From the IMG/VR virus record IMGVR_UViG_3300036860_000563, positions 64,001-94,290 of that record: 30,290 bases of DNA; one strand, written 5' to 3'. Below, in pieces: positions 1,772 through 27,865 of the stretch. The notes beneath the pieces were generated by a model. That model saw only the letters and a program-made list of their open reading frames with translations. It searched no databases and was not told the origin of the DNA. Both the position numbers and the translations under genes were made by a program. Every line of letters begins with the position of its first letter. Positions within the stretch are counted from its first letter, which is position 1. This DNA comes from a virus. Taxonomy: Duplodnaviria; Heunggongvirae; Uroviricota; Caudoviricetes.

Positions 1772-1786
1772 GGAGGGCGACACACC

Positions 1787-2320: not shown

Positions 2321-2330
2321 GTGATCTTAA

Positions 2331-2735: not shown

Positions 2736-2849
2736 GTGACATCACTCCCACCTCACCCTAAAGATCATGTTGACAACGTTGAGTGTCGATATGATGTTGG
2801 TGTGGTGTAGCGTAGACACCGGTAGGATAACACCGGGAGATGACGCACT

Positions 2850-3341
2850 ATGACGACAGTGTACAACTACCCCACGACCGGGGCGGCAACTGTTTCCTCG
2901 TCGGTGACGCTCTCGAGCGCGGATGACGAAGTTGATCTCGTTGACTTCTCGCTCGACGTTAAGCCCATCAAGTTCGCCGCGGACGGTGAGCGCTACGAGT
3001 GTCACCCCGCCCTGTCCGTTCCGATGATGCAGCAGATCGTGCAGCTCACCCGTGACGGCGTCGTTAAGATCGATGAGGCGAACATCGAGCACAGCGTGCG
3101 CGTGCTCACCGCGCTGTTCGGTGCGATCATGCTGCCTGACTCGGCCGAGCGCTTCAACGCACGGCTGACCGGTGAAGCGGGTAAGCCGCTCGACCTTCGA
3201 CGTCAGGTCGTACCGATCCTACAGCACATACTGGAGCGCTACGGTCTCCGCCCTACCGAGCCGTCGTCGGACTCTTCACCTGGGTCGGACGACGAGACAA
3301 CTGGCACCGCTTCGACGGTTGGTGCCTCCACCGAAGTGTAG
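2850..3341 (+). CDS. Tail assembly chaperone (gpG-like)
   Basis: It lies upstream of the tape measure gene and ends 'YGLRPT' followed by a Ser/Thr/Asp/Gly-rich tail, the usual actinophage TAC pattern. Confidence 0.75.
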   Translation: MTTVYNYPTTGAATVSSSVTLSSADDEVDLVDFSLDVKPIKFAADGERYECHPALSVPMMQQIVQLTRDGVVKIDEANIEHSVRVLTALFGAIMLPDSAERFNARLTGEAGKPLDLRRQVVPILQHILERYGLRPTEPSSDSSPGSDDETTGTASTVGASTEV

Positions 3342-3601
3342 ACCCACTGTCACTTCAGCCGGCACGCTTCCTTAACCTCGTGCATCACTACGTCCTACTG
3401 ACGTCGGAACTCGAGACGCACGACCAGCTCAACCGGGAGCTACTCGGCGCACCGACCGTGCGAGGCACCGCACCGGCGATCGTAGGTACGAGCGCCGTAA
3501 CACGCGGCGTGATGGAGGTTCGACCACCGTCGTGGTGGCGCGGTGATGAGCTCGCCGCGCGTGATAGTCTCGCGGCGTTTGCGGCGATGAAGCGTAGGTG
3601 A
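3251..3601 (+). CDS. -1 frameshifted extension of tail assembly chaperone (gpGT-like)
   Basis: The -1 frame is open from 3185 to TGA 3599-3601 and reads PYRAVVGLFTWVGRRDNWHRFDGWCLHRSVDPLSLQPARFLNLVHHY.... The candidate slip site is CGC-CCT-ACC (3249-3257) shifting to CCC-TAC. Confidence 0.7.
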   Translation, partial: PYRAVVGLFTWVGRRDNWHRFDGWCLHRSVDPLSLQPARFLNLVHHYVLLTSELETHDQLNRELLGAPTVRGTAPAIVGTSAVTRGVMEVRPPSWWRGDELAARDSLAAFAAMKRR

Positions 3602-3605
3602 TCGT

Positions 3606-6623: not shown

Positions 6624-6654
6624 TCACTCAAGTGACCGACGACCGGAGGAACTC

Positions 6655-7371
6655 GTGAGCCTCACCGCCGACCAGGGACTGATCATACCTAACTCGTCCG
6701 ACAACGACAACGTGCCGCTCTCCGTGTCGGATTACAACACCGGCGTTGAGTCACGGTTGGTGAAGCGATACGCGTCTGTGGCCGACCGAACGGCGCGCAA
6801 CGCGACGCCCACCGAGGGTGAGCTGTCGTACCTGCTGGACCTGAACCGGTTTGACTTCTACTCCGGTGCGGCGTGGACGACGCTGCAGTCATCACTCGTA
6901 GCGCAACCCATCACCGTCACGGTGAAGACGGCGACCGAGTCGGTCGTCAGCAGCACGACGATGCAGAACGACAACGACTTCTTCTTCTCGGCGGCCGCCA
7001 GCTCGACGTACAAGGTCGAGCTGGACCTGTTCATCAGCGGTCCCAACGGGTCATCCGTCGGTGAGATCCTGTGTCAGTGGACCGTGCCGACGAGCACCAC
7101 GTCCGACTTTGGAATCATGTCACAGGACTGGGGGCTGGCCAGCGGTGCGATCGGTTCCGTCAACCTGCAGGCCGGACACTCGACGGGCACCACCACGGCC
7201 ACGGTGCTACTGGGCACCTCGGTCTTTCAGTGCTACGCCCGGGTAAGCGCTGTGTTCCGCGTCGGTGGCACGGCCGGTACGATTCAGTTCCAGTGGGCAC
7301 AGAACACCAGCAACGCGACGGCGAGCAACATCCTGGAGGGTTCGAGTATGACGATCATCAAGGTCTCGTGA
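6655..7371 (+). CDS. Minor tail protein
   Basis: The start was re-called to GTG 6655 (SD GGAGGA at 6645-6650). It has the motif 'RYASVADRTARNATPTEGELSYL' and a C-terminal beta-sandwich ('QNDNDFFF...TYKVELDL...QFQWAQN'). Confidence 0.7.
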   Translation: MSLTADQGLIIPNSSDNDNVPLSVSDYNTGVESRLVKRYASVADRTARNATPTEGELSYLLDLNRFDFYSGAAWTTLQSSLVAQPITVTVKTATESVVSSTTMQNDNDFFFSAAASSTYKVELDLFISGPNGSSVGEILCQWTVPTSTTSDFGIMSQDWGLASGAIGSVNLQAGHSTGTTTATVLLGTSVFQCYARVSAVFRVGGTAGTIQFQWAQNTSNATASNILEGSSMTIIKVS

Positions 7372-7375
7372 CGAG

Positions 7376-8866
7376 ATGTCATCACTCGTAGCAACACCCG
7401 ACCTCGACAACGCCGCCGTCGCCGTCGTCATCGACGACGTCTACGCGCGTGACACGTTCACTCGCACGGTCTCCAACGGGTGGGGCACCGCCGACACCGG
7501 ACAGACCTGGACGATCATTGAAGGCACCGCGGCCGACTTCGCCGTCAACGGCACACTGGGCACGATGACACACAGCGCGACGAACGCGTCGCACAGCATC
7601 ATCCTCCCCCCGAGCCGGGTGGACGTGGACGTTCGCATCAACGTAGAGCACAACATCGGGAGTGTGGCCGGTGGTAACTTAGTCGCCTTCTTCGACTTCC
7701 GGATGATCGACATCAACAACCTGTATCGGTTGTACGTTCGGTGGAAGCCGGCGGGCGTCGCCACCGTCGAGCTGATAAAGTTGATCGCAGGCACCTCTAC
7801 GACGATCGCCGGTGAGACGGTGATCCCCGGTGTCACCGCTACGAGCTCACTCACAGTTCGAGTGCGGGTGACTGGGACCGTCATCACCGGTGTGCGACTG
7901 TTGGCGAACGCGTGGCTCTCAACACAGCCCGAGCCAGCGTGGCTGTTGAGTGCCGTTGACTTCACCTTCGGCGCTCTCGGTGACCTTCGAGTCGCGTCGT
8001 TCCGCGACACCGGCAACACCAACAACCCAACTGTGTTTCGGTTCGACAACCTCACCGTGGCGATACCGGAGCCGGTGCACGTGTCACGGGTATACCCGAA
8101 CGCCACCGAGGCCGAGGTGCTCGGTTCACCGTTTTACACCTCGGGTGGTCTCGCCGTGCTGTGGGACACGGTCATGCCACTCGACGTACCGGTGTTCTAC
8201 GTGGCTCGCGCGGACGGCTCAACTGTGATCAGCCTAACGTCAAACACGGTCACTGTGACCGGGCAGGGCGACGGTTGGTTGAGAGATCCTGAGCAACCCA
8301 TCTACGACGTGCACCTCGTGGACTGCTCACGCAGTTGTCCCATCACCGTCTCACTAGGTGTCGTCAGCCGGCAGGCCGAGCTTCAGGCACTCGACCCAGC
8401 GGCGCTCAGCTCGGCCAATGGCACGTTCCCGATCATCGACGCGGCGCGCTCTCGGACGGTGTCACAGACGCGCAAGGCGAGAAGTCTCGCGCTTCACATA
8501 CTTACGATGACACTCGCACAGGAGCAAGGTGTTGTGAACGTGCTCGCGTCGGGCCGTGTGTTGTTCTTGCAACTTGCTCACCTCTACGGTTGGGCGTACG
8601 ACAACTGGGCGTCGGACTACGTCGACGTCGGAGACGTGGTGGACGCACGAGTGGGAACACAGAACATGCTCTTACCGCAGCGAACGTGGTCACTACCACT
8701 GAGACTCGCGCGAGCACCCACCGTCACGTCCGGTCACCTAGCCGGTAACGGGATCGGAGTGAGTGGCACCACGTACGGCGACGGCACGGCGTCCGGTCGC
8801 ACGTATCAAGATCGCATTAACCTACCCAACACGTACCTAGACACGTCGCTCGGGGTGGGTCTCTAG
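7376..8866 (+). CDS. Distal-tail (Dit)-like minor tail protein with inserted lectin-like domain
   Basis: The segment 'DTFTRTVSNGWGTADTGQTW' ... 'FRFDNLTV' (ConA-like) is followed by 'LWDTVMPLDVPVFY', 'DGWLRDP' and 'R...WSLPL', characteristic of actinophage Dit-like proteins. Confidence 0.55.
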   Translation: MSSLVATPDLDNAAVAVVIDDVYARDTFTRTVSNGWGTADTGQTWTIIEGTAADFAVNGTLGTMTHSATNASHSIILPPSRVDVDVRINVEHNIGSVAGGNLVAFFDFRMIDINNLYRLYVRWKPAGVATVELIKLIAGTSTTIAGETVIPGVTATSSLTVRVRVTGTVITGVRLLANAWLSTQPEPAWLLSAVDFTFGALGDLRVASFRDTGNTNNPTVFRFDNLTVAIPEPVHVSRVYPNATEAEVLGSPFYTSGGLAVLWDTVMPLDVPVFYVARADGSTVISLTSNTVTVTGQGDGWLRDPEQPIYDVHLVDCSRSCPITVSLGVVSRQAELQALDPAALSSANGTFPIIDAARSRTVSQTRKARSLALHILTMTLAQEQGVVNVLASGRVLFLQLAHLYGWAYDNWASDYVDVGDVVDARVGTQNMLLPQRTWSLPLRLARAPTVTSGHLAGNGIGVSGTTYGDGTASGRTYQDRINLPNTYLDTSLGVGL

Positions 8867-9942
8867 TGTGGCCCACGTCCCAGGCACTGCTCAACGCACT
8901 GATCACCGATCACGAGATGGACGTCACCGTCAACGTCATACGAGGTGAGCAATCACTCGGTCAGGTGCCGATCGTGGCGTGTAGCGTGGACGCGACACTA
9001 CTTACCCAAGATGGGCGCACCGCATCACTCGTCGTGGACCAAGGAGTGATCGACGACGGGTTGCTCGATCCGCTCTCGGACACCGTGGTTATTCGTACCG
9101 GTGTTTCCGACGTCGAACTGGTGCCGATCTTCACCGGCCGTGTCGACGCACACGCGGCCGGGAGCGACGGTGACGTCACCGTCGCGTGCGTCTCCCGTGC
9201 GGTTGAGCTGACGCGAGCTCGGTTTGAGACACCTATGTCGGCGCGACCCGGTGCACTCATCCGGGATGAGATTCAACGTCTCGTGCAGGACGTCGACCCG
9301 GCGTGGTCGGTGGACGTGAGTGTGGCGCGTCCTGACCGCGTACCAGACTCACTACTCTGGGAAGAAGATCGCAGTGGCGCCGTCGATGAGCTCGCTACGT
9401 CGCTCAACTGCATCTTAATGCCCAACCGCGTTGGTGGGTTCATACTCGTGCCGTCTCGCTTTGCGGAGGGCGCGAACGTCACACCGGTGGCGACACTCCG
9501 TGACGGCGAGAACGGGGTGCTCGTCAAGATCGACTCAGTTAAGTCACGGCGTGACATCGCCAACTCAGTCACAGTTGTCGTAGAGCGCACCGACGGAACG
9601 TCACCGATTCGCATCACGGTGCGAGACACCAACCCGGCCAGTCCGACGTTCTGGGGCGGTGTGTTTGGTAAGCAGAACGTCGTGCTCAAGCTCGACTCAC
9701 CGAGCTCGACGTTGGAGGCGAGTGTCATCGCATCACGGGTTCTACGACAGTCACTCGCCGTGGCACGGACGTGGCGCATCACGCTACCCCACTACCCGGT
9801 GCTCGACCCGGGTGACGTCATCGTCATCTGGCACCGTGGTGAACCGTTCACACAGGTTATCGAGTCGGTGCGGTACTCGGGAGGTGCGAGTGAACCCACG
9901 GTGCTCGCGGCGCGTGAGCTCATCGTCGCACCCACTCCCTAG
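8866..9942 (+). CDS. Baseplate hub / Tal-like minor tail protein (DUF5047-like)
   Basis: Starts 'MWPTSQALLNAL...H'; has 'PIFTGRV', 'LWEEDRSGAVDELATS', 'NSVTVVVE', 'FWGGVFG' and 'P.LDPGDVI'. The start overlaps the upstream stop by one base. Confidence 0.7.
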   Translation: MWPTSQALLNALITDHEMDVTVNVIRGEQSLGQVPIVACSVDATLLTQDGRTASLVVDQGVIDDGLLDPLSDTVVIRTGVSDVELVPIFTGRVDAHAAGSDGDVTVACVSRAVELTRARFETPMSARPGALIRDEIQRLVQDVDPAWSVDVSVARPDRVPDSLLWEEDRSGAVDELATSLNCILMPNRVGGFILVPSRFAEGANVTPVATLRDGENGVLVKIDSVKSRRDIANSVTVVVERTDGTSPIRITVRDTNPASPTFWGGVFGKQNVVLKLDSPSSTLEASVIASRVLRQSLAVARTWRITLPHYPVLDPGDVIVIWHRGEPFTQVIESVRYSGGASEPTVLAARELIVAPTP

Positions 9943-9960
9943 GTGATGAGGCAGCGGTGT

Positions 9961-9977
9961 GATGATGATGATGATGA
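9961..9977. repeat. (GAT)5 microsatellite in intergenic spacer
   Basis: gatgatgatgatgatga lies between the tail gene and the first glycosyltransferase. Confidence 0.85.
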
Positions 9978-10006
9978 AGTGCTGCACCTCCTAGTAGAGT
10001 AACACT

Positions 10007-10702
10007 GTGAGTGATCACACACAATCATACGCGATCGTGTTGACGCACAACAGACCGACGGAGCTGGCGTGGTGTGTTGCCGCACTCGTCGACCAGGTTG
10101 ATCACATCATCATCGTGGACAACGCGTCACAGCCGGCCGTCGTCACCGGTGATGTGACGTTTCTCGACCGGGTGAGAGCGTGGACGATCATTTGCGATGA
10201 GGAGCAACCACCTAACCTCGCGCGGCTGATGAACGTTGGTCTCGAGCGGGCGAGTGAGCTCGCCAAGGCGCGAGATCAAGGCACGTACGACGTGGCGATC
10301 GTCTGTGATGATGTGTTCGTGCCCTCCGGCTGGTTCGACGCGGTCGCGACGTGCGTGCGCGCGCACAACGTCGTCGCGGGCAGCACGCACCAGGTGACGC
10401 CCGTCACCCAGCCGATCGTTAAAACGGCACCGGACTCCGACATCCACAACCGAATGCAGGGTTCGGCGTTTGTGACACGTGGTGAGGTGGGCCTACGCGC
10501 CGACGAGCGCATGCACTGGTGGTGGCAGGACACGGACCTGGACTGGCAGGCTCGACTCACCGGCGGCATGGTCATCGCACCGGGACCCGTCGCGCTCAAC
10601 ACTCGTCCCAACGACTTCACGTACTCGGTGCCGGGACTCGCCGAGCGCGCGGGTGTCGACCAGAGAGAGTTTAAGGAGAAGTGGGGTTGGGTACCGTGGT
10701 AG
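10007..10702 (+). CDS. Glycosyltransferase, GT-A/GT2-like
   Basis: 'AIVLTHNRP..L..CVAAL..Q...IIIVDNAS', 'N.GL', 'IVCDDV' and 'WQDTDL' are GT2 motifs. Confidence 0.75.
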   Translation: MSDHTQSYAIVLTHNRPTELAWCVAALVDQVDHIIIVDNASQPAVVTGDVTFLDRVRAWTIICDEEQPPNLARLMNVGLERASELAKARDQGTYDVAIVCDDVFVPSGWFDAVATCVRAHNVVAGSTHQVTPVTQPIVKTAPDSDIHNRMQGSAFVTRGEVGLRADERMHWWWQDTDLDWQARLTGGMVIAPGPVALNTRPNDFTYSVPGLAERAGVDQREFKEKWGWVPW

Positions 10703-10758
10703 ACGTCAGACGCACCACGACGCGCACCACCTTCATTAGGAGCACCGAGACCGATCGT

Positions 10759-11525: not shown

Positions 11526-12736
11526 GACGAACGACGTGTAGCGCGTGTGGTTATGACGACCTGCGGACGTTCCTCGACCTAGGTTCCTCGCCCATCGCCG
11601 ACGCGTACACCAGCTCGCCCGATGAGCTGAGTGACGTGTACCCTCTGCAACTCGCCGTGTGCGCCGGTTGCTGGCTGGTGCAGCTCTTAGAGGTCGTCGA
11701 TCAAGAGACACTATTCGGCACCGGTTACTCGTTCTACTCGTCCGCGTCGGCGCCGCTGTCCAACTATCACGCCACGTACGCCGCGAGTGTTCTCGGGGGC
11801 TACGGTGACCTGGCGCAGCGGTTGACGGTGGAGGTCGGCTGCAACGACGGGGACATGCTTCGTCACTTTCAACGCGCCGGATGCCCCGTGGTGGGTGTGG
11901 ACCCGGCGAGCGGACCGGTCGGCGCCGCGCGCGAGCGTGGGCTCGACGTGCTCGACGTCGCGTTCACGCCTACGGTCGCCGGTGAGCTGCTGGAGGCGCG
12001 AGGTCCCGCCGGGTTGATCATTGCCAACCACGTACTCGCCCACGTCGAGGACGTCTCACACGTGCTCTCGGGCGTCAGCACCCTGCTGGCGGCCGACGGT
12101 GTGGCGTTCGTCGAGGTGCAGTACCTGCCCGACCTGCTCGTGAACAACGCGTTCGACCTGGTGTACCACGAGCACCGCAACTTCTTCTCACTCACCAGCC
12201 TGGAGTGCGCCGCGAGACGCTGGGGACTCTACGTCGCCGACTGGGAGCTCACCCAGCGGCAGGGAGGATCACTTCGTGTCACACTGTCGAAGCAGCGTCA
12301 GCGCACTAGTTCGTCACACACGATCACACGTGAACGTGAAGAGTGGTTGCGTCACACGAGTGCGTATGACGGTCTACAGGGACGAGTAGAGCGCGTTCGC
12401 ACTCGCTTACGTGACCTGCTGTTCGACGAGACGATGAACGGACGCTCAGTCGCGGGCTACGGCGCACCCGCCAAGGCGACGACCCTCCTCAACTTCTGTG
12501 GTATCGACCACCACACGATCGAGTTCATCACCGACACCACACCCGCGAAGTGTGAACGATACGTACCCGGCACCGGAATCCCCATCATGGCTCCGTCCGA
12601 CGCGTTGCGTCACGACGTCGACACGTTCATCATACTCGCGTGGAACTACGCGGCACAGATCATACGAAACAACGTGAAGTTCATGGACGACGGCGGACGC
12701 TGGATCATACCCATCCCGGCACCGGTGCTGCTGTGA
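11522..12736 (+). CDS. NDP-hexose C-methyltransferase (TcaB9/TylC3/EryBIII-like)
   Basis: The start was re-called to GTG 11522 (GTGA overlap). It has the N-terminal Zn site 'CSACG...LDLGSSP...YPL.LAVCAGCWLVQL', then 'VEVGCNDG', 'GVDPA', 'NHVLAHV', 'YHEH..FF', 'GYGAPAKATTLLN', 'GTGIPI' and 'LAWNY'. Confidence 0.9.
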   Translation: MRRTTCSACGYDDLRTFLDLGSSPIADAYTSSPDELSDVYPLQLAVCAGCWLVQLLEVVDQETLFGTGYSFYSSASAPLSNYHATYAASVLGGYGDLAQRLTVEVGCNDGDMLRHFQRAGCPVVGVDPASGPVGAARERGLDVLDVAFTPTVAGELLEARGPAGLIIANHVLAHVEDVSHVLSGVSTLLAADGVAFVEVQYLPDLLVNNAFDLVYHEHRNFFSLTSLECAARRWGLYVADWELTQRQGGSLRVTLSKQRQRTSSSHTITREREEWLRHTSAYDGLQGRVERVRTRLRDLLFDETMNGRSVAGYGAPAKATTLLNFCGIDHHTIEFITDTTPAKCERYVPGTGIPIMAPSDALRHDVDTFIILAWNYAAQIIRNNVKFMDDGGRWIIPIPAPVLL

Positions 12737-13305
12737 TGAGCTTACGCGGTGTTAACGTCGCACGAGAGGCCCATCACGTGAGAGTAAACTTGGGCTGCGG
12801 TGACCGGTACGCCGACGGTTGGCTCAACGTTGACCACGGCGGTTCACCACATCGTAAAGATCTAGAGGTGGACCTTCGCGCGCCGCTTCCGTGGCCACGA
12901 GACTCGATCGCGTACGCGTACGCCGGGCACCTGCTGGAGCACCTGCGCGTTCACGAGGTCGTGGTGTTTCTCGGACGCCTACGTTCGTGCATGCGTGATG
13001 ACGGTGTGCTCACCGTCGTCGGACCCGACCTGGACATCGCCGAGGGCATGGCCGCGGCGGGTACACTCGACGTAACGCTCGACTCACTCCGGTGCGGCGC
13101 CGACCGCTGGGTCGGTGATCGTCACCGCTGGGAGTGTAGCGCACCCGCTGTCGTCACGTTCTTGCGATTGACCGGCTGGGTAGACATACGTGAGTCGAAC
13201 GTTGATGAGCTGCCCGAGCTGTGGCCGGTGGCCGACCGAGGACCGCGGTGGCAGTGCGTCGTGCTCGCCACTCGCGGTTCCGATCCCCCGGGCGACGCCG
13301 CGTGA
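12736..13305 (+). CDS. Class I SAM-dependent methyltransferase (small-molecule/sugar type)
   Basis: The start was re-called to ATG 12736 (TGATG overlap). Motifs 'VNLGCG....GWLNVD', 'DL..PLPW...S....YAGHLLEHL'. Confidence 0.8.
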   Translation: MSLRGVNVAREAHHVRVNLGCGDRYADGWLNVDHGGSPHRKDLEVDLRAPLPWPRDSIAYAYAGHLLEHLRVHEVVVFLGRLRSCMRDDGVLTVVGPDLDIAEGMAAAGTLDVTLDSLRCGADRWVGDRHRWECSAPAVVTFLRLTGWVDIRESNVDELPELWPVADRGPRWQCVVLATRGSDPPGDAA

Positions 13306-13904
13306 TCGACATCACCGTGGCGATACCGACGATCGCACCTCGTGCCGCGCCGGGTGGGTTGTTAGAGCGAGCGCTACGAAGCGTAAGCGCCCAGACGTCA
13401 CCACCTAGTGGTGGAACGTCGTGTGCGCTCGACGTCGACAAGGTCGGCGCCGCTGGGACGCGACAGCGAGCGCTCGACGCGGTGCGCACCGAGTGGGTAG
13501 CCTTCTTAGATGATGACGACACGTGGTACCCGCACCACCTTAGTGCGCTCTCACAGCTCGCCGAAGACACCGGGGCCGCGTACTTATTCACGTGGTTTGA
13601 CGGCAACAACCCGTTTCCCGCACACCGTGGCCGGGCGTTCGACGTGACGCAACCTCATCACACCACGATGACGGTGATGGTAAAGACCGAGCTCGCGCGA
13701 GTCGCGGGCTTCATCCAACCGGACGGACCGATGCACCAGGACTGGGCCGGTGAGGACTGGCAGTTCACGCTACGCTGCGCGGCTGAGCTGGTGCGGCGGC
13801 ACGGGGTGACCGGGGCTAACGCACGCTTTGCCGGCACGGGTGACGTTACGTGGACGTACCACGTGCACGGCGGTAACACCAGTGGCCTACCGACGAGATG
13901 GTGA
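13302..13904 (+). CDS. Glycosyltransferase, GT2-like
   Basis: The start was re-called to GTG 13302 (GTGA overlap). Motifs 'ITVAIPTI', 'RALRSV.AQ', 'EWVAFLDDDD', 'EDW' and 'YHVHGGNTSG'. Confidence 0.82.
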   Translation: MIDITVAIPTIAPRAAPGGLLERALRSVSAQTSPPSGGTSCALDVDKVGAAGTRQRALDAVRTEWVAFLDDDDTWYPHHLSALSQLAEDTGAAYLFTWFDGNNPFPAHRGRAFDVTQPHHTTMTVMVKTELARVAGFIQPDGPMHQDWAGEDWQFTLRCAAELVRRHGVTGANARFAGTGDVTWTYHVHGGNTSGLPTRW

Positions 13905-16129: not shown

Positions 16130-16435
16130 GACGCCGCACGCCTCACAGACCTCATGATGTGGAGATAACCGCATCACCGTGAAACTCTCACACCCCGGAC
16201 ACTTAACACGGTGACGTGGTGTTCTGATCTTGTATCGCTGACGCTCCGTTAGGCCACCCCAGACGCCGTACTTCTCGGGAAGTGTGAGCGCGTGGTGCAG
16301 GCAGTCCAGCCGGATCGGACACGGTGTTAAGCAGATCGTCACCGCGTCATCCTCGAGAGCGGGTTCAAAGAACAGGTCGCGATCACGTCCTTGGCACGCT
16401 GCCCGCGACCAGTCTACGATGCGAGTGTGCGTCAC
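16115..16435 (-). CDS. whiB: WhiB-family Fe-S transcription factor with C-terminal Zn-ribbon-like extension
   Basis: 'W..RAAC....LFF....A..IC...CPIR..CL..AL......GVWGGLTERQR' followed by CxxC...CxxC. Confidence 0.9.
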   Translation of the reverse strand: MTHTRIVDWSRAACQGRDRDLFFEPALEDDAVTICLTPCPIRLDCLHHALTLPEKYGVWGGLTERQRYKIRTPRHRVKCPGCESFTVMRLSPHHEVCEACGVSWTI

Positions 16436-19863: not shown

Positions 19864-20109
19864 TCAGCCCGTCAAGACCTGCGCCCAGATGTGGCCGTTG
19901 AGACCCTCACCGCTCTGGCGAGTTACACGGCCGTCACGCTTCAGCCGGTAGAGTGACAGGTACACCTGGTTCGCTGTGAGCTGCGTGGCCTCGACGAGTC
20001 CCGGTTTGGTCTTCGGCTCGGCGAGCGCACCGTACACGAGCTCGTCGCGGTCGATGGTCTCTTGCGGTCGCGGCCGGCCCTTACGTCCCTCTACCGCCGT
20101 CTCCGTCAT
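19864..20109 (-). CDS. Small winged-HTH-like DNA-binding protein
   Basis: 'RPRP..TI.RD..V...L......L......T..QVY.SL.RL...GRV'; SD GAGGGAG upstream. Confidence 0.55.
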   Translation of the reverse strand: MTETAVEGRKGRPRPQETIDRDELVYGALAEPKTKPGLVEATQLTANQVYLSLYRLKRDGRVTRQSGEGLNGHIWAQVLTG

Positions 20110-20168
20110 GGTGAACTTTCTCCCTCGTTTGACTACGTGTGTATGTGTTCAGTGATGCAGCGCCGTGT

Positions 20169-21428
20169 TCATTGTATCATAAACTTTCGCCAGGCGTTTG
20201 TGACGTTGACGCACCACTCCCGCTCACCGATCGCGTCACCACGCCACGCACCGGGCTCACCGTCGAGCGCCCGGTAAACCCACTCACCGATCCAGCGACC
20301 GCACTGCACGGAGATTCCCTTGCCCCAGGTCGCCGACAGTCCCGACACCCCGCGCAGTGGTGCGATCTTCCAGTCATCTGGAAAGCCGAGCACGCGGGCG
20401 GCCTCACGGTGAGTGATCATTCGGTCGAGCCAGGGGTGAACCACCGTCACGAGTGAGCCACCCGTGATGACGCGCGCCGCACACTCGCCGTCCCAGCGCA
20501 CGGGAGTGGTGAAACCCATGCGAAACTCGTTCTTTACGATCTTCTCCTCGGTGGCCTGGAACGAGTCCGGCAGCCGGGCGTTGTCATCGTAGAACCGATG
20601 TGCGACGGTGGAGATGGACTCACCGGGGCGCCACTCCACACCACGGAGCAGGTCACCGACGCGACGCGTTAGGGGGGTGTGCAGCCCGACGTGACCGTCC
20701 ACCACACCACTAGGTGACCGCAGCGGCTCGGCCCAGCGGCTCGCGGGCGCGCGGTACGACTGGGCACCCCACGACTCACCCAGCGGTGCTAGGTCACTAA
20801 TGACGTCGTTGAGCGCCGGCAGACGCCGAGGCTCGGGTGGTTCGATCCCGAACGGCACACGTGAGATGAGCCAGAAGTAGCGTCGCCGCTGGGCGGCACC
20901 GCCCACCGAGTACGCGTTGTGAAGCACGTGATGTAGGTCCCACCGGTGACCGGTGCGCTCCTCGACGCGCGCGCGCAGCCGGCGCATGAGCTCGAGACCG
21001 TCCGGTTTGGTGAACGCTTGTTGGACGCTTTCAAATGCTATGATGTACGGATCGCATTTGATGGCGTAGTCGACGAACGCCCACGTGCAACCGAGGATGC
21101 TGGACTCAGCACCACGAAAGTCTTTTGCGCTCATTACACTCCACGCACTGCAGGGCGGGTTTCCCACAACTACATCGGCTCGTACCGGTGTCCACGCCTC
21201 GTGTGGAACTGCCTCGTAGGTCCAGTTTTTACCGAGCACGTGTCGGTTAGTGAGACAGCTGGATAGTCCGAACCCACCCTTCATCTCGGCACGGTGAATG
21301 AGACGAAATCCGGCCTGCACCATGCCGGTGTCGAAGCCACCGGCGAACGTCTGACATCCTACGTAAGTATACAACGTTATCGCCGCTTTTAGCTCTGCGT
21401 AACGCCGCACTTGTGACGACTTACCCAC
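20169..21428 (-). CDS. DNA cytosine-C5 methyltransferase-fold protein with divergent motif I (start uncertain)
   Basis: Motif IV 'VVVGNPPCSAWS', VI 'FESV', VIII 'AQRRRRYF', IX 'RMITHREAARVLGFPDDW' and X 'WGKGIS'. Motif I reads GCQTFAGGFDTG rather than DLFxGxGG. Confidence 0.85.
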   Translation of the reverse strand: MGKSSQVRRYAELKAAITLYTYVGCQTFAGGFDTGMVQAGFRLIHRAEMKGGFGLSSCLTNRHVLGKNWTYEAVPHEAWTPVRADVVVGNPPCSAWSVMSAKDFRGAESSILGCTWAFVDYAIKCDPYIIAFESVQQAFTKPDGLELMRRLRARVEERTGHRWDLHHVLHNAYSVGGAAQRRRYFWLISRVPFGIEPPEPRRLPALNDVISDLAPLGESWGAQSYRAPASRWAEPLRSPSGVVDGHVGLHTPLTRRVGDLLRGVEWRPGESISTVAHRFYDDNARLPDSFQATEEKIVKNEFRMGFTTPVRWDGECAARVITGGSLVTVVHPWLDRMITHREAARVLGFPDDWKIAPLRGVSGLSATWGKGISVQCGRWIGEWVYRALDGEPGAWRGDAIGEREWCVNVTNAWRKFMIQ

Positions 21429-21865
21429 GTGGGGCTTGACGTAAATTCACACCATTGACACGTCTTACGTGTGAGTTGTGCTACACGAACCGCGTCTCTT
21501 ACGCGCTGTGGTCTCTGTTTGCCGTACATAGGATTAAGTACGCCGGGACTCCCCTTCTTTGCGTTAACTTCTTGAGAGAACTTCATACCGTTTGTCGGAG
21601 ATGGTCGATCCTTATAATTTACATGACGACGTCGAAGTTCGTCAGCGTCAGGTGCGTGATGTCGTTGATGACACCTAACATGTGTCATCACTACATTGCT
21701 AGGTGCGTCGTTCACCGCGTTATCATCTACGTGATGAACGTTACCGTCCCACTTTTCATGACCTATGACGGTAACTTTATCACCACAGAAAAAGCAAGAC
21801 CATGGTCCACTGTCGTGTGTCTCGTAGAACACATTCATCGTTCGTCGATGATTACGCGAACCCAT
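21389..21865 (-). CDS. HNH endonuclease with NUMOD3-like motif
   Basis: 'CFFCG...VHHVDDNAVNDAPSNVVMTHVRCHQRHH' and 'NPMYGKQRP'. It is more A+T-rich than its neighbours. Confidence 0.75.
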   Translation of the reverse strand: MGSRNHRRTMNVFYETHDSGPWSCFFCGDKVTVIGHEKWDGNVHHVDDNAVNDAPSNVVMTHVRCHQRHHAPDADELRRRHVNYKDRPSPTNGMKFSQEVNAKKGSPGVLNPMYGKQRPQRVRDAVRVAQLTRKTCQWCEFTSSPTWVSRHKCGVTQS

Positions 21866-21901
21866 GGTTAAATCTACTAGGATCTAAGACTGAGGGTCAG
21901 G

Positions 21902-22219
21902 TCAGTCTCTAAGGTATGGCCACACAACGTCGAACGAAAGACTCACACCACACGGACCACAGAACACCTTCTCGATACCACCGTGCGGTGAGTTGGCCTC
22001 GAGATCCGCGCTCTCAATGTCCGCGAGACAGCTAACAGTGTGTAAGACACCGAGCGCCGGATCGGCCGTTAGAGTGACAGCGTCGAGAACCGATGTGCTG
22101 AACGGCTCGAACAACTAGCGTGACGTTACGTCACAGTCAAGTGAGATGAGTGAGTACACCAGCTCATCAACTACTCGTTCACGCGCATCAAAACGCGTGG
22201 CGACGTAGGTGCGTATCAT
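21902..22219 (-). pseudogene. 105-codon ORF interrupted by a single in-frame TAG (22115-22117)
   Basis: ATG 22219 overlaps the dUTPase stop (ATGA). There are 34 codons, then TAG, then in the same frame the 70-aa ORF 21902-22114, whose TTG start lacks an SD. Confidence 0.45.
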
Positions 22220-22755
22220 ATCTTTGAATCACCGTTCAGCGAGTTGACGACGTCAAGCTCGAGCGGATGTGAGCACGGGCCGCACCACGCACCGACGAGT
22301 ACACCACTGAGCGATGACCGGGTCTTGATGACGTTGACGTCGTCGAGGGCGCGGCCACAGCCCGGGCACTTCGTCGAGTGACCGTCATAACCGTGACGCT
22401 GCCGAGCGACGTTAGCAGCGCGCTTCGCGTAGTACGTGTCGACGAACCTCACCGCGAGCTCGTCGGCTGTGTCACCTGGGTACGCCGCCCACGCGACGTT
22501 CATGATGAAGTGCCACGCGTCCACGAGCTCGTGAAGTAACCGGTCCGAGTGAACCGCACGCTCACCGATCGTCCACGACTTCCACGTCGTCTCGTCGAGC
22601 GCCTCGTGCAGCTCGTGAACCGCGGCGAGCACCATCTCTTTCACGTACGAGACGCGCTGATCGATCGTCATACTCGCAAACTCGTAGCCGAGTGTGTTTT
22701 CCTGCAGCTCCCGCTGGGCGGCCAACATCTCGGTGAGCTCACCAGGCCAAGGCAC
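22216..22755 (-). CDS. All-alpha dimeric dUTPase/MazG-like NTP pyrophosphatase with C-terminal CxxC..CxxC (alternative start 22773)
   Basis: 'ML..QRELQ', 'ELHEALDETTWKSW', 'ELVDAWHF' and 'Y.AK...N.ARQ..GY', followed by CPGC...CGPC. Confidence 0.8.
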   Translation of the reverse strand: MPWPGELTEMLAAQRELQENTLGYEFASMTIDQRVSYVKEMVLAAVHELHEALDETTWKSWTIGERAVHSDRLLHELVDAWHFIMNVAWAAYPGDTADELAVRFVDTYYAKRAANVARQRHGYDGHSTKCPGCGRALDDVNVIKTRSSLSGVLVGAWCGPCSHPLELDVVNSLNGDSKI

Positions 22756-23686
22756 GACGCACGCCCTTCTCAATCGAGATCTTCGCGGTGTGAAGCTCGT
22801 TCATGATCGTCGGGTCACCAACGCGGTGGGTTACACCCAGTGGTTGATCGGGGTCGACGAGCGTCACCGGCGCGTAGTCGACCTCCCGCTGGACGAGCAG
22901 TGCGAGGTCAAGTAGTGACGTACCGACCCCGGTGCACAGGTTGACCGGGCGACACTCATCGGCGTCGACGACCGCGAGCGCACCGTTCACCAGGTCAGAG
23001 ACGTGAATAAAGTCACGGGTCTGGTCAGCGCGTCCCCAGATCGTAAACGGATCTTCACGTCGGCGCGCTCGCTCCACGAACGCGCGAAACGGAAAGTTCT
23101 CCGACTGATCCTCACCGTAGCCGGAGAACGGTCGTACGATGTGAACCGGTAACCCGTTCCGCTGGGCGATGACCGCCTGCAACTCACCTACGTACTTCGT
23201 CCACCCGTACGTCCGGTCGGGCACCCGCACCGGTGAGTCATCGAGCGCGTCGGCGAGGTCGACGTACGCGTCAACCTCATGCAGCCTGGTGTCGATGAAC
23301 TCGTCGGTCTGCAGCGCCACCGGGTAGATCGCCGATGACGAGACGTAGAGTAGTCGCCGCTGGTGTGTGTACATCGCCCAGGAGAAGATCGCCGCGTCCA
23401 GTGCGACGTTGTATGAGAAGTTAGCGTTCACGGCGTCGATCGCGGCCCGGTGCGGCTCGCGTGCGGCGCAGTGAACGACGAGATCGAACACGGTGCTGGT
23501 GTTTACACGGCAGAAGTTGTGAGCATCCTGCATCACGTGAATTCGACTCACGTGGTTGGGAAACCAAGAAACGTCAACCCGTTCGAGGTCCACCGAGGTG
23601 ACGAACCAACCACGACGCTCTAGCTCGTCACTAAAGTGTCGACCGAGGAAACCGGCACCACCGGTAACGAGTGCGGTCTTAGTCAT
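22739..23686 (-). CDS. NAD-dependent NDP-sugar epimerase/dehydratase (extended SDR)
   Basis: The start was re-called to ATG 23686. Motifs 'ALVTGGAGFLG', 'VVHCAA', 'YVSSSAIY', 'YGWTK', 'RPFSGYG' and 'QTRDFIHVSD'. Confidence 0.9.
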   Translation of the reverse strand: MTKTALVTGGAGFLGRHFSDELERRGWFVTSVDLERVDVSWFPNHVSRIHVMQDAHNFCRVNTSTVFDLVVHCAAREPHRAAIDAVNANFSYNVALDAAIFSWAMYTHQRRLLYVSSSAIYPVALQTDEFIDTRLHEVDAYVDLADALDDSPVRVPDRTYGWTKYVGELQAVIAQRNGLPVHIVRPFSGYGEDQSENFPFRAFVERARRREDPFTIWGRADQTRDFIHVSDLVNGALAVVDADECRPVNLCTGVGTSLLDLALLVQREVDYAPVTLVDPDQPLGVTHRVGDPTIMNELHTAKISIEKGVRRALAW

Positions 23687-23687
23687 G

Positions 23688-24749
23688 TCACAGAGCTCCC
23701 AGCGCCTGCAGGTCGGTGAGCCACGCCTCAAAGCCGTCACGCGTCTGATCGGGAAGCCACGGGAGTTCGTCCAGCGCCGAGTAGCACCGGGTGATGAAGT
23801 CACCGAGCTCGGCGCTGGACCAGTCCTCATTCGTACTTTCATCACCGAACGTGACGTCACGCAGGACAGCGCAGAGTTCCTCGGTGTGACGCATACCGAA
23901 CAGCTCCGCGTCGAGGTCCGCGAAGATGTCGTGCTCGTTGCGCGTCTGCGTCACGAGAGGCTCACCGTACCACACGAGGTAACCCAGGTGGTCCATGACG
24001 CACCGCGCGAGGTACGATGCCCAGACGTCGTCATAGCGACCAACTCCCGGCCAGACCATCATCAACGGCGCGAGTTCCGCCCGGTACGCGACGGCCTGTG
24101 AGTTGAACGGCGCCCACGTGCCGGGTGCCAGTGCGGCACCCGGGTGCCAGTGCGACGACATGCGGTCGGTGGCTACACGACCGAGCGCGAGACGCGTCGC
24201 CGCGTCGACGTCCGGGTCACCACGCCACAGGGACGCGTGTACCCCGACCGGCAGAGCGTCGTGCACCTCGGTGAACACGTGAATCTCATCTCGCTGGGTG
24301 ATGGGAAAACCTCGGTGAAACGTCGAGGCGCCGAACATCACCAGCGGGTTGAACCAGCCCGACGAGCTGTCGATGATCACCGTCGCGTCGGTGGTGGCCT
24401 CCGACAGCGCTCGGTGAACCATCCCCCACTGGTCGGCCTCATCCGGCCAGTTGTCGTCGTCCACCGTCATGATCCACTCGGGTTTGAGCGCGATCGCCTC
24501 GAGCAGCGCGACGTTACGCCGCTGAACCGAGTTCCACCCGACGGCCTCACTCGTCTTCCACCCAAGCTGCGCGCTGGGCGCGAGGTAGCGGTTGTCGCCG
24601 GGCAGCTCGGCGAGCAGGTCGGTGACGGCCTCGTGCGGTGTGTTGCGGTCACCGGCGACGATGATGACGTCATCATCCATCATACCCGCCGCGCGCCACA
24701 TGCGTAGGTTCTTAGGAACGTTGATCGTGGTTGTGATGAGAGCGCGCAC
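23688..24749 (-). CDS. RGP/STELLO-like (GT75-related) nucleotide-sugar mutase or glycosyltransferase
   Basis: The start was re-called to GTG 24749 (AGGAG 8 nt upstream). Motifs 'ITTTIN', 'VAGDRNTP', 'RRNVALLEA', 'TVDDDN', 'RGFP', 'LWRGDPDVDA..RL', 'PFNSQ', 'GRYDDVW' and 'Q.RNEH...DL..E'. Confidence 0.75.
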   Translation of the reverse strand: MRALITTTINVPKNLRMWRAAGMMDDDVIIVAGDRNTPHEAVTDLLAELPGDNRYLAPSAQLGWKTSEAVGWNSVQRRNVALLEAIALKPEWIMTVDDDNWPDEADQWGMVHRALSEATTDATVIIDSSSGWFNPLVMFGASTFHRGFPITQRDEIHVFTEVHDALPVGVHASLWRGDPDVDAATRLALGRVATDRMSSHWHPGAALAPGTWAPFNSQAVAYRAELAPLMMVWPGVGRYDDVWASYLARCVMDHLGYLVWYGEPLVTQTRNEHDIFADLDAELFGMRHTEELCAVLRDVTFGDESTNEDWSSAELGDFITRCYSALDELPWLPDQTRDGFEAWLTDLQALGAL

Positions 24750-24760
24750 GTGCGTGGCTC

Positions 24761-24919
24761 CTAGTCGTAGAGAGTGTGATCGAGTATGATGAGACCGACA
24801 CCGATGACGATCGCGATGAGTGCGAGATACCACCTGTCCGGAGCGAAGCAGAGCATGCCGCCACCGCCGGCGATGAACACGCCACCTACGGCGTTAAGGT
24901 CTATGACGTCACGGGCCAC
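24761..24919 (-). CDS. Small 52-aa membrane protein (not in ORF track)
   Basis: GTG 24919 has GAGGAG upstream and TAG at 24761-24763. It reads VARDVIDLNAVGGVFIAGGGGMLCFAPDRWYLALIAIVIGVGLIILDHTLYD and exactly fills the gap between two operon genes. Confidence 0.5.
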   Translation of the reverse strand: MARDVIDLNAVGGVFIAGGGGMLCFAPDRWYLALIAIVIGVGLIILDHTLYD

Positions 24920-26250
24920 ACTCGCTCCTCGATGAGTCGTACGTAGCGTAGCTCGGTGAGTGCGTTGCCAAAGTGAACGCGCTGCGCACGCACCAAGTGA
25001 AGCCAGTCGTGACGACCGGCGTCGGAGTTGAGGTGAGTAACGCGCCGGTGTAGATCACCCGGTGAGTCGGCGCGAAGCCAGTCGCGAAGGTACGGCGCAG
25101 CGTCGCCGAGAACGTTGTTCTGCGTGTCGTAGAGCGGGTGAAAGAAGCACACCGTACCGGCCGCGAACGCCTCCCAGGGCTTCGCGGTGGCCCAGCCGGA
25201 GCCGCTGGACGGCGTCGTGAACGTGGACCGTACAGAGTGAAGTAGTGGGTAGTACTCAGCCCAGGGTGCCGGCGTGATCCGTCGGTTGAGGTGCGTCTGT
25301 GACACGTCGGACCACGTGCCGTGAACCCACTTAGGTGCGAGTGGCAGCACCCAGTCACGTACGATGTCTCTCCGACGCGTCGCGTCGGACGTGCGTGGTG
25401 ACGCCTCGTTGATGAACATGCCGAAGCTGTCCCGGTGATCCCACTCTTCGTCGTACGAGATGAGATCACCGAACGGTGTCCCGGGCAGCAGGCCGTTGAC
25501 CTCGAGGCGTGAGTACACGTTGTGCACCGTCGAGCGCCACACCGTGGCGTCGTCGTGAGCGTCCCAGAGCGGCTCCACCTCGTTCTTCGTCTCACGTTCC
25601 CAGTCACTCCAGCCGCCCGTGTCATCGTAGCGCTCGTGCTTGAGCGGGTGGTGAAACGTGAACTGGGTGAGCACCGGGTGCCGAAGTGGCCACTTTAGGT
25701 CTCGCATCTTGTGACGGTTGCGAGAGTCCGCGTTGAGGTAGACCTCCTCACGCTTCCACGGGTCGACGTCACGCCACAGGTTGACGCCCCGGAAGAGGTA
25801 CGAGCAGTAGTAGGCACACCAGTCGTAGGGCTTGGTGAGCTGGTCTCGGTCGTCGACTCGTGGTATCGGTGTGTTCGTCGTGCCGTGCTGACCCACCCAG
25901 AGTATGATCGCGTCGAGGTCGAGGATCGTCGGTAGTGTGAGTGCGTCGAAGATGTCCTGCAGTGAGAGCTGCTCCACGGACGACAGGTTGGCGTGATTGA
26001 GCTGTGCGTCATTGATCTCACGTCGTAGCCGGGGTGCCCACTCGATCCACGGGTTCTCGACGTTGTCGGGTAACCCGACGTCGGTGGGCCGCGAGCCGTC
26101 GTTGCGACCGATGAGCACGAAGGTGTCAGCTGGGTGTCGCTGGGCGAGTGTCTTTACGACCGCGGCCATCTCCACGTCACCGCCGAGCGTTCCACAGCGT
26201 CCCAGTGATAGGGGCATCGACCGGCCGATCTTTCCATACCCGACTCTCAA
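24901..26250 (-). CDS. T4 beta-glucosyltransferase-like (GT-B) DNA glycosyltransferase
   Basis: By-eye colinear match to T4 BGT recalled from memory: GGDVEM~PSSETI, YLNADSRN~YLFTDIRL, YSRLEVNGL~YFPIEQYKI, TAKPWEAFAAG..FFHPLYDTQNNV~TLRVWETMASD..LIDEEFDTKHRI, SPGDLHRRVTHL~NRAELIDRVNEL. Confidence 0.75.
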   Translation of the reverse strand: MRVGYGKIGRSMPLSLGRCGTLGGDVEMAAVVKTLAQRHPADTFVLIGRNDGSRPTDVGLPDNVENPWIEWAPRLRREINDAQLNHANLSSVEQLSLQDIFDALTLPTILDLDAIILWVGQHGTTNTPIPRVDDRDQLTKPYDWCAYYCSYLFRGVNLWRDVDPWKREEVYLNADSRNRHKMRDLKWPLRHPVLTQFTFHHPLKHERYDDTGGWSDWERETKNEVEPLWDAHDDATVWRSTVHNVYSRLEVNGLLPGTPFGDLISYDEEWDHRDSFGMFINEASPRTSDATRRRDIVRDWVLPLAPKWVHGTWSDVSQTHLNRRITPAPWAEYYPLLHSVRSTFTTPSSGSGWATAKPWEAFAAGTVCFFHPLYDTQNNVLGDAAPYLRDWLRADSPGDLHRRVTHLNSDAGRHDWLHLVRAQRVHFGNALTELRYVRLIEERVWPVTS

Positions 26251-26415
26251 CTCACGTCTCTCCGTTCTTAAGACTCACCGTCTCTTCGCTCTCTCGTGTG
26301 AAGCTTCACCCCGTAGCCTCACAGGTGCCGTCCCCGAGCGACGATCACCGCACAACTCGTCCGCTCGTCTGTGCATCAGCACCTCTCCCTGAGTGAGATC
26401 GTACCAACACCTCCG

Positions 26416-27045
26416 TTAGAACGGCGGCTCCGGTGGCGCCGATGACGGTGTCGCCGGTGGTCCGGGCACCGACGCCGGTGACGTTGGCATCGCCGGCGAC
26501 GTCGGCATCGGTGATGACGGTGACGTCACTCCGGCCACCGGCCAACCGCTCAGCGACGGTACTGGAGCCGGCGAGCCACCCACCGGCGGAGTCGGTAGCG
26601 CCGGACCAGCAACGCCACCGGGGAGAGCCGCACCGGCGACTCCGCTGGGCGCCAGCAGCTTGATCTCGTTGCGTGGAACTCCCTGCCACTCGCGCACCCC
26701 GGTCTGGGCTCGCGCGCGCCGGTTGAGCAGCGCCGTCGCGACGTGTGCTAGTCCCTGGCCACCGAGCTGTGAGAAGAACACGCCGTCGAGTCCGAACGCC
26801 GCCATGTGACGGAAGAAGATGCTGAGCGCGAAGCCGTTGTCCGGCGACAGCACGAACTGGTTGAAGAGCTGCCGGCCCGCGAAGGGACCCGACTTCACCT
26901 CCATGACGACCTTGATCATCTCCGAGCCGGTGGACGCGAACGTCGCGTCCGCCTTGATGATCTCGACGTCGTACCAGTCGTCGGGCAGTGGCTTCGTCGC
27001 GTCCTCGGCGGTCTTACGCAGGCTGCTCCAGTCGATCTCACTCAT
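26416..27045 (-). CDS. DUF669-like ssDNA-binding protein
   Basis: SD GGAGG. Motifs 'PLPDDWYDVEI..A....STGSEMIK...EV..GPFAGRQLF', then a Pro-rich tail ending PPF. Confidence 0.7.
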   Translation of the reverse strand: MSEIDWSSLRKTAEDATKPLPDDWYDVEIIKADATFASTGSEMIKVVMEVKSGPFAGRQLFNQFVLSPDNGFALSIFFRHMAAFGLDGVFFSQLGGQGLAHVATALLNRRARAQTGVREWQGVPRNEIKLLAPSGVAGAALPGGVAGPALPTPPVGGSPAPVPSLSGWPVAGVTSPSSPMPTSPAMPTSPASVPGPPATPSSAPPEPPF

Positions 27046-27079
27046 GCGGTGAGAACCTCCCTAGTCGTGGTGAAGATGA

Positions 27080-27865
27080 TCATTTTAGGGACGAGGGTGA
27101 CGACGGTGACTCGCCGAACACCTGCGTCATCATACGTGTGATGTGTGGGTCATCGATGACGTCGGGCAACGCTCCCTGAACGCGCTCACCCGCGATGATG
27201 GACGGCACCACACCCTCGCCGATGAGGAGCTTCTTCAGCTTACCGGTCGACTGGCCGTTCGCGTCCTGGGTGAGCTCGGTGTACAGGTAACCGCAGATGT
27301 CGACCCAGTAGGGTAGCGCGCGACCGATCTGGCCCTGCATCGCGGGACGCCACGCGCCGTCCTTGAACTCGGTCTCGGCGATGAACACAACGCAGCGTAG
27401 TGGGTTGGGCTCCGGCAGCAGCACCAGGTCACGCATGCTCCTGATGAGCATGTCCATGTGTACGAGCAGGTCGCCCCAGTCTTGGATCCGGAGCTGCTCG
27501 GTGCCGCGAAGCTGCATCTTCAACTTTCGCTGTGACTCGGTGACGGAGTCGAGCACCAGCGAGTGAAAGTCGTGCGCGTCGACGTGTGAGAGCCACTGGT
27601 AGGCCTGCGTGAGTGTGCTCCACTTTCTCACCATGACGTGACAGAAGTCCCACGTGCCGTCGTAGCGCGGTGGCGGTCCCTGGAGTGGGTCCCACTCGAT
27701 GCGCCGAAGTGGCACGCCGGACCGGTAGCCGGCCTCTCTCACGTACTTCCAGCCACCCTCCGCGTCGAGAACGCAGATGGGTGGTGGCGCGGTCGTGCTG
27801 AGAGTGGACTTACCGACCTTGGCGGACGAGTGAATGAGTAGTGACGTCGTCTCGTATGAGCTCAA
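27080..27865 (-). CDS. AAA_24 / Sak4-like ATPase
   Basis: Walker A variant 'SSAKVGKST', 'VLDAEGG', Walker B 'LVLDSVT', 'DWG' and 'FIAE'; sits between the exonuclease and the SSB. Confidence 0.8.
   Translation of the reverse strand: MSSYETTSLLIHSSAKVGKSTLSTTAPPPICVLDAEGGWKYVREAGYRSGVPLRRIEWDPLQGPPPRYDGTWDFCHVMVRKWSTLTQAYQWLSHVDAHDFHSLVLDSVTESQRKLKMQLRGTEQLRIQDWGDLLVHMDMLIRSMRDLVLLPEPNPLRCVVFIAETEFKDGAWRPAMQGQIGRALPYWVDICGYLYTELTQDANGQSTGKLKKLLIGEGVVPSIIAGERVQGALPDVIDDPHITRMMTQVFGESPSSPSSLK

Follow-up and report, generated by a model that had tools for sequence, protein, structure and literature searches.

Glycosylated cytosines are a classic shield of phage DNA against restriction enzymes and CRISPR. 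They are in turn targeted by type IV restriction systems and by DNA glycosylases such as Brig1, and they are the subject of tools for mapping 5-hydroxymethylcytosine (5hmC). The beta-glucosyltransferase (BGT) of phage T4 (CAZy family GT63, Pfam PF09198; PDB 1bgt, 1j39 and 1nzd) has D100 as its general base according to the established structures. BGT, the alpha-glucosyltransferase AGT and TAGT are essentially restricted to T-even-like phages (PMC13216743). Arabinosyl- and hexosyl-5-hydroxycytosine (5hoC) systems with phage-made nucleoside diphosphate (NDP)-sugars were published in 2026: RB69, DLP3 and HY126 have arabinose, and Rhizobium phage RL38J1 has galactofuranose, whose furanose donor is made by UDP-galactopyranose mutase (UGM) (PMC13326640). 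In the present study, I analysed a stretch of 30,290 nucleotides (the window), which is the final 30 kb of a 94,290-bp IMG/VR virus record (IMGVR_UViG_3300036860_000563) rated as complete by CheckV. The gene in question, hereafter the GT gene, encodes a predicted DNA glycosyltransferase (GT) of 449 amino acids (aa) on the minus strand. It was found that this protein is a distant relative of T4 BGT and that its gene lies in a replication module together with a putative 5hmC pathway and putative sugar-donor enzymes.

The GT protein has no match in Pfam (E ≤ 10), PHROGs or NCBIfam. When the single protein was compared with all PDB sequences using phmmer, T4 BGT was the sole match, at a non-significant E of 1.4. 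An alignment of 76 diverse members of the GT family was then used as a profile, and BGT was again the sole match in the PDB (hmmsearch, E 6.5e-8, over the C-terminal domain). For the reverse side of the comparison, the homologues of T4 b-gt, as given in the annotated T4 record, were collected from a set of 5.8 billion proteins. This BGT family proper is small, with 42 clusters that all have PF09198, and hardly occurs outside T-even-like phages; 24 of the clusters were aligned. The two family alignments match over the full length (hhalign probability 98.4%, E 4.3e-15, 327 columns). An AlphaFold2 model built from the 76-member alignment has a predicted local distance difference test score (pLDDT) of 93.1 and a predicted template modelling score (pTM) of 0.92. 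It shows a GT-B fold, and the top six Foldseek matches in the PDB are all BGT entries, BGT being the nearest solved structure across both domains. T4 AGT (GT72) is not the closest by structure or by sequence. Since the profile match runs over the full length, BGT is the only match in the PDB, the model is confident and Foldseek returns BGT, the relationship to BGT is real and specific. Thus, the GT shares ancestry with T4 BGT (CAZy GT63) as a two-domain GT-B enzyme, and T4 BGT is its closest characterised relative by sequence-profile, profile-profile and structural comparison. An earlier note, made from the DNA sequence alone, had recognised five colinear blocks of T4 BGT in this protein and had named profile and structure comparison as the check; the colinear match proved to be far above chance. 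In BFVD, the second-best structural match of the GT is a 463-aa protein of an uncultured siphovirus with the pipeline label 'DNA beta-glucosyltransferase', and the remote likeness is already picked up at the level of automated annotation.

The active site of BGT can be traced in the GT family. The profile-profile alignment places D175-S-R177 on D100-I-R102 of BGT and W359-E360 on W271-E272, in agreement with the equivalences of DSR with DIR and of the WE motif that the earlier note had proposed. D175 is kept in 75 of the 76 members and R177 in 71, while the position of E27 (BGT E22) is acidic in 73. The other shared positions are R293 (BGT R195; 75/76), K357 (R269 in BGT; 76/76), E360 (E272; 73/76) and D375 (D287; 76/76), and T355 is aligned with BGT T267. 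The equivalence of D175 and D100 rests on the profile-profile alignment and on the matching secondary-structure position. On this comparison of sequences, D175 is the predicted catalytic base, and R293, K357 and E360 are predicted nucleotide-sugar contacts.

The GT has 98 residues more than BGT (449 versus 351 aa), close to the surplus of about 100 that had been estimated beforehand. The extra residues are chiefly a two-helix insertion (residues ~54-112) and a variable loop (~205-236). The earlier note had described Trp-rich insertions with a possible influence on sugar or base specificity. The protein is indeed Trp-rich overall (21 Trp, 4.7%); those Trp residues that are conserved, however, belong to the core and not to the insertions. 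The largest insertion holds only two Trp residues, and the Trp-containing loop has a low pLDDT, is poorly conserved and is missing in more than half of the family. A Trp-rich insertion as a conserved specificity element was therefore rejected, being variable and often absent. An altered sugar specificity is supported by the neighbouring sugar-nucleotide genes, but the insertions are not the evidence for it.

The genomic context was compared with that of T4. The minus strand carries every gene from the helicase gene at the end of the window down to ~20.1 kb. They are arranged as helicase, PD-(D/E)XK exonuclease, Sak4-like recombinase, DUF669 single-strand DNA-binding protein (SSB), GT, a GT75/RGP protein and an extended short-chain dehydrogenase/reductase (SDR), followed by a dUTPase_2/MazG-type pyrophosphatase, a 70-aa open reading frame (ORF), a 158-aa ORF weakly matching HNH and, last, a C5-methyltransferase-fold protein. 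The module runs across the record ends to genome positions 1-7 kb, where PolA, a dCMP deaminase, a thymidylate synthase (TS) homologue and a thymidylate-kinase-like P-loop protein are encoded. A motif of the T4 gp56 dCTPase recurs in the dUTPase_2 protein (BLASTP E 3e-6 over 48 aa). The TS homologue was aligned with E. coli ThyA, T4 gp42, SPO1 gp29 and RB69 gp48. C146 is kept, and L143 is replaced by Asp, as in T4 gp42 and SPO1 gp29. N177 is also replaced by Asp, as in T4 gp42 (Asn in SPO1 gp29), which argues for a cytosine specificity like that of gp42. D169 is kept; since D169N is the signature of all tested 5hodCMP synthases (PMC13326640), the TS homologue lacks the mark of a 5-hydroxy-dCMP synthase. 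As read from these genes, the set should follow the T4 logic for replacing C by 5hmC. Like T4, the phage encodes a dCMP-hydroxymethylase-type enzyme, a dCTPase-like enzyme, a dNMP kinase and a dCMP deaminase besides the transferase. Unlike BGT, the GT family occurs in high-GC, actinophage-like siphovirus genomes with PolA and not in T-even phages.

Is this arrangement common among the relatives? When clustered at 90% identity, the GT family falls into more than 710 clusters, none of which has a name, and at 50% identity into 249. Five family members with 28-58% identity adjoin a TS homologue, a dUTPase-type enzyme, a DNA_methylase-like gene and/or an NTP_transferase gene, and the TS homologues in three other family contexts show the same pattern of N177D, L143D and a retained D169. 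Thus, a BGT-type gene is encoded alongside a dCMP-hydroxymethylase-type TS homologue and a candidate for dCTP removal both in this genome and in relatives. A scan of IMG/VR with a closer, 16-member GT alignment yielded 72 related viral loci, in which the synteny is near-universal. Upstream sequence of at least 9.5 kb is available for 44 loci; the TS homologue is present in 38 of these, the deaminase in 40 and PolA in 42. Likewise, 45 of the 49 loci with at least 5 kb of downstream sequence have the dUTPase_2 gene and 47 have the C5-methyltransferase-like gene. This replication-module context supports DNA as the probable acceptor of the GT.

The same loci revealed two kinds of donor-supply genes. 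Within 4.5 kb of the GT gene, 44 of the 68 loci with enough flank have a GT75 gene and 24 have an NTP_transferase (sugar-1-phosphate nucleotidyltransferase) gene, the latter sometimes with an APH-like kinase gene, and no locus has both. When these labels were placed on the maximum-likelihood tree of the GT, at least three changes were required, as compared with a mean of 19 for shuffled labels. Since close kin share labels, the pattern indicates clustering with few swaps and not proven co-evolution. In Actinomycetia phage DSL-LC01 (OQ999401), the same slot of a syntenic replication/hmC module is occupied by a glycosyltransferase gene followed by a UDP-galactopyranose mutase gene (19912-22048). 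This glycosyltransferase was rejected as a member of the GT family (hhalign probability 0.3%) and is unrelated to the GT, so that the DSL-LC01 slot is a non-orthologous cassette of a glycosyltransferase plus a furanose donor. In view of DSL-LC01 and of the mutual exclusion of GT75 and NTP_transferase, the slot between the SSB gene and the dCTPase-like gene can be regarded as a 'transferase plus donor supply' cassette. Such a constant donor-supply neighbour is a further difference from T4 BGT. The cassette with NTP_transferase and the APH-like kinase resembles the kinase-plus-uridylyltransferase route of RB69.

Directly downstream of the GT gene lie the GT75-family gene and the SDR gene. The GT75 neighbour matches Pfam RGP (E 8e-10) and, in the PDB, MtdL, an actinomycete GT75 GDP-L-galactose/GDP-L-fucose pyranose-furanose mutase. 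The match to MtdL has an E of 1.1e-29 for the single protein and 6.4e-60 for a 20-member profile, whereas that to the plant UDP-arabinopyranose mutase is 1e-6 only. The actinomycete GT75 mutases MtdL and Hyg20 (PDB 7xpr and 7yua) are thus the closest known relatives, and the catalytic residues of MtdL have been assigned (PMC9937993). Among 41 phage GT75 homologues, the second and third Asp of the DDD motif, Arg159 (the nucleophile), D195, R257, D260 and R289 are invariant, and the first Asp of DDD, Q229 and H292 are each kept in 40; the S228/Q229 pair of MtdL and Hyg20 is conserved as well. In contrast, Ile, Thr or Val stands in place of Asp87, which contacts a sugar hydroxyl. Two further positions are as in GDP-specific enzymes: Thr13 is retained, and Asp is never found at position 86. 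Judging from these residues, the phage GT75 clade is a distinct, putative subfamily of NDP-pyranose mutases, and unlike MtdL and Hyg20 it is found in a DNA-modification module and not in an antibiotic gene cluster. The start codon of the SDR gene, an ATG, lies 1 nt past the GT75 stop codon (4 nt past the last sense codon). The SDR protein matches UDP-glucuronate decarboxylase (2e-14), GDP-mannose 3,5-epimerase (1e-11) and GDP-fucose synthase at similar levels that do not discriminate among them.

Taken together, it is fairly likely that the GT is a BGT-like enzyme that transfers a sugar, with inversion, to 5hmC in DNA, and its donor is probably not plain UDP-glucose. In the proposed pathway, dCTP would be removed from the pool by the dUTPase_2/MazG-type enzyme, 5-hydroxymethyl-dCMP would be made by the TS homologue and phosphorylated by the adjacent kinase, and the resulting nucleotide would be built into DNA by PolA. 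After replication, the GT may bind the DNA between its two Rossmann-like domains, in the cleft that separates them, possibly with the target base flipped out. D175 would then serve as the general base on the 5-CH2OH group, as D100 does in BGT, and the sugar would be moved with inversion from an NDP-sugar bound by R293, K357 and E360. The donor would be made or remodelled by the GT75 mutase homologue and the SDR epimerase/reductase. Since these two enzymes may supply or remodel the donor, a furanose (L-galacto-, L-fuco- or arabino-type) is the probable sugar, in place of glucose; the donor-supply gene that always accompanies the GT likewise argues against glucose from host UDP-glucose. The hmC gene set and the adjacent sugar-remodelling enzymes suggest that the phage DNA is probably decorated with an unusual sugar, possibly a furanose, as a protection against host nucleases. 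The earlier note's assignment as a base-flipping DNA glycosyltransferase is supported as far as a DNA glycosyltransferase is concerned, with BGT as the nearest relative, the catalytic Asp and the UDP-contacting positions other than R191 conserved, and a putative hmC pathway in the genome. A more specific proposal is put forward tentatively, at less than an even chance: 5hmC may be furanosylated with an L-galactofuranose-, L-fucofuranose- or arabinofuranose-type sugar, the donor coming from the phage GT75 clade with its Gln-for-His replacement (see below) and the GT perhaps taking a GDP-sugar.

Several observations weigh against this assignment. The identity of the GT to BGT is as low as ~10-12%. 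BGT R191 has no clear partner and lies opposite D289 in a low-confidence loop. PF09198 is absent for the GT protein, and for the 76 members it is not among the top 25 of the 28 Pfam families matched at E ≤ 1. Since there is no PF09198 match, the GT family lies outside PF09198 as this family is drawn and is a sister to it, and the GT is best described as the founding example, for the present analysis, of a large sister family of GT63. As for the donor, the Mn-ligand His287 of MtdL is replaced by Gln in 38 of the 41 phage GT75 homologues (Gln296 in the present one) and by Ser in three. This His is not conserved in an inactive plant paralogue (PMC9937993). The GT75 neighbour may therefore not be a standard mutase. 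If it is a GDP-specific mutase like MtdL, the donor of the GT must be a GDP-sugar, and no use of such a donor is known for BGT.

The replaced Mn ligand, which hints at altered chemistry, also bears on an alternative in which the GT is a plain equivalent of BGT that transfers glucose from host UDP-glucose onto 5hmC, the GT75-like neighbour being a further transferase, of GT-A fold, that adds to the first sugar as TAGT does in T2/T6-like phages. GT75 proteins do have a GT-A fold, a DXD motif and an autoglycosylating transferase activity (PMC9937993), and phages with an alpha- or beta-glucosyltransferase mostly also have the GT-A-fold TAGT (PMC13216743). However, the GT75 neighbour has no match to the TAGT family PF20691, the residues assigned to the mutase mechanism are kept in the phage homologues, and a sugar-nucleotide enzyme, the SDR, begins directly past the GT75 stop codon. 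The strict alternation of GT75 and nucleotidyltransferase genes (44 versus 24, both in none) also fits alternative donor routes better than an optional second transferase. This alternative is thus unlikely, and a remodelled donor is preferred.

It is less likely still that the GT modifies DNA at another base, such as 5-hydroxymethyluracil, giving a base-J-like product, or 5hoC as in RB69, DLP3 and RL38J1. The dCMP deaminase gene adjoins that of the TS homologue, whose closest annotated phage relatives include dUMP hydroxymethylases such as those of SPO1 (gp29) and PW916. However, T4 itself encodes a dCMP deaminase, and the position of N177 is Asp as in T4 gp42, while it is Asn in SPO1 gp29. 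The glycosylated 5hoC phages have similar genes, namely a TS homologue, a thymidylate-kinase-like kinase, a GT-B transferase and phage-encoded sugar-nucleotide synthesis and activation, and RL38J1, like DSL-LC01, has an NDP-sugar mutase for a furanose donor (PMC13326640). In contrast to these systems, D169 is retained here and not changed to Asn as in all tested 5hodCMP synthases (PMC13326640). The RL38J1 UGM also differs in being flavin-dependent, whereas the present mutase homologue is of the metal-dependent GT75 type. As for an acceptor other than DNA (a virion protein, a host cell-envelope polymer or a small molecule, with an incidental position in the replication module), virion glycosylation is known in actinophages and the generic Glyco_trans_1_2 domain is matched by 33 of the 76 members, but this is very improbable given that the slot between the SSB/recombinase genes and the dCTPase-like gene is kept in nearly all 72 loci, that the linkage to dCMP-hydroxymethylase-type TS homologues holds even at 28% identity and that BGT is the unique sequence-level relative among solved structures.

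The features of the locus are summarised in Table 1. The ORF of the GT agrees with the 449-aa ORF of the earlier note. In the public gene call for an identical protein, translation begins at residue 12 (ATG), which gives 438 aa. The first beta-strand is made up of residues 1-11, which are conserved across the family, are aligned with BGT residues 1-11 and include K7, found in 69 of the 76 members. The ATG start was rejected, because it loses this conserved strand (26217-26250) and because a GGAG sequence sits before the TTG. Thus, the TTG coordinates are better than the public call. Promoter and terminator scans of 22000-27200 gave nothing above chance.

Table 1. Features of the GT locus (positions in the window)
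Feature	Position	Strand	Remark
WhiB-family gene, marker of Actinobacteria phages	16229-16408	minus	
C5-cytosine-methyltransferase-fold gene	20169-21428	minus	travels with the module; 47/49 related loci with enough downstream flank
dUTPase_2/MazG-type NTP pyrophosphatase	22216-22773	minus	likely counterpart of T4 gp56 dCTPase
Extended-SDR NDP-sugar epimerase/reductase	22739-23686	minus	TGGAGF Rossmann motif
GT75-family NDP-pyranose mutase homologue (MtdL-like)	23688-24833	minus	predicted to supply a furanose NDP-sugar
BGT-like GT-B DNA glycosyltransferase (predicted)	24901-26250	minus	449 aa, TTG start; predicted base D175; predicted nucleotide-sugar contacts R293, K357, E360
Shine-Dalgarno-like GGAG	26260-26263	minus	read from sequence; 9 nt 5′ of the TTG of the GT gene
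DUF669 single-strand DNA-binding protein	26416-27045	minus	upstream neighbour; marks the replication/recombination module; in 67/72 related loci

The earlier note had called the source an actinophage. The WhiB-family gene, a GC content of ~62% and the nearest phage relatives of the TS homologue, which are an Actinomycetia phage and Gordonia phages, support an actinobacterial host.

A megablast search of the GT gene against 50,697 phage records gave no match, and the sole tblastn match in these records, from which the phage's own or very near genomes may be excluded, was Pseudoalteromonas phage vB_Psh_XG4 (PP712099). In the unannotated record of this cultured marine phage, an NTP_transferase homologue, a GT family member (23% identity) and a C5-methyltransferase-like gene are consecutive (1341-6511). 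The C5-methyltransferase-fold gene, which in the present phage lies in a genome predicted to have no unmodified cytosine, is thus shared with vB_Psh_XG4. The most distant IMG/VR family member (29% identity; locus L082, 603-2827) is followed by a radical-SAM/SPASM protein and an NTP_transferase, which hints at a further-processed sugar or base in this lineage. Another locus (L010) has a dCMP-hydroxymethylase-type TS homologue and ThyX together (6643-7428 and 12898-13551), which fits separate routes to 5hm-dCMP and dTMP.

Two further genes were noted outside the window (genome coordinates). The gene at 9880-10731 on the minus strand, in the same minus-strand early region, has a weak match to 2OG-Fe(II) oxygenases (E 5e-4, below the Pfam cut-off). 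A search of the genome for Tet/JBP dioxygenases gave no match, but the control genomes likewise gave none, so that this negative carries little weight. The gene at 12113-13768, also on the minus strand, encodes a 551-aa protein with a TROVE (Ro60-like) domain and a weak, sub-cut-off VWA match, and it corresponds to phrog_850 ('RNA-binding protein').

In the literature searched, I found no paper that deals with the GT family, with a part of GT75 enzymes in the modification of phage DNA or with the glycosylation of hmC in actinophages. The sister family described here is much larger than the BGT family proper. It has no annotation in Pfam, PHROGs or NCBIfam and is found in high-GC, WhiB-encoding phages. 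If the furanosylation of 5hmC is true, it would be the first role of GT75 enzymes in nucleic-acid modification as well as a new DNA hypermodification, and the GTs of sister clades would have been re-tuned at least three times between mutase- and nucleotidyltransferase-supplied donors. With a fixed place in the module and a swappable donor cassette, the family is a natural enzyme panel that likely places different sugars on 5hmC. The cultured phage vB_Psh_XG4 is a possible experimental handle. Such a panel would be useful for understanding phage counter-defence in Actinobacteria, and its enzymes may serve as reagents for selective 5hmC labelling.

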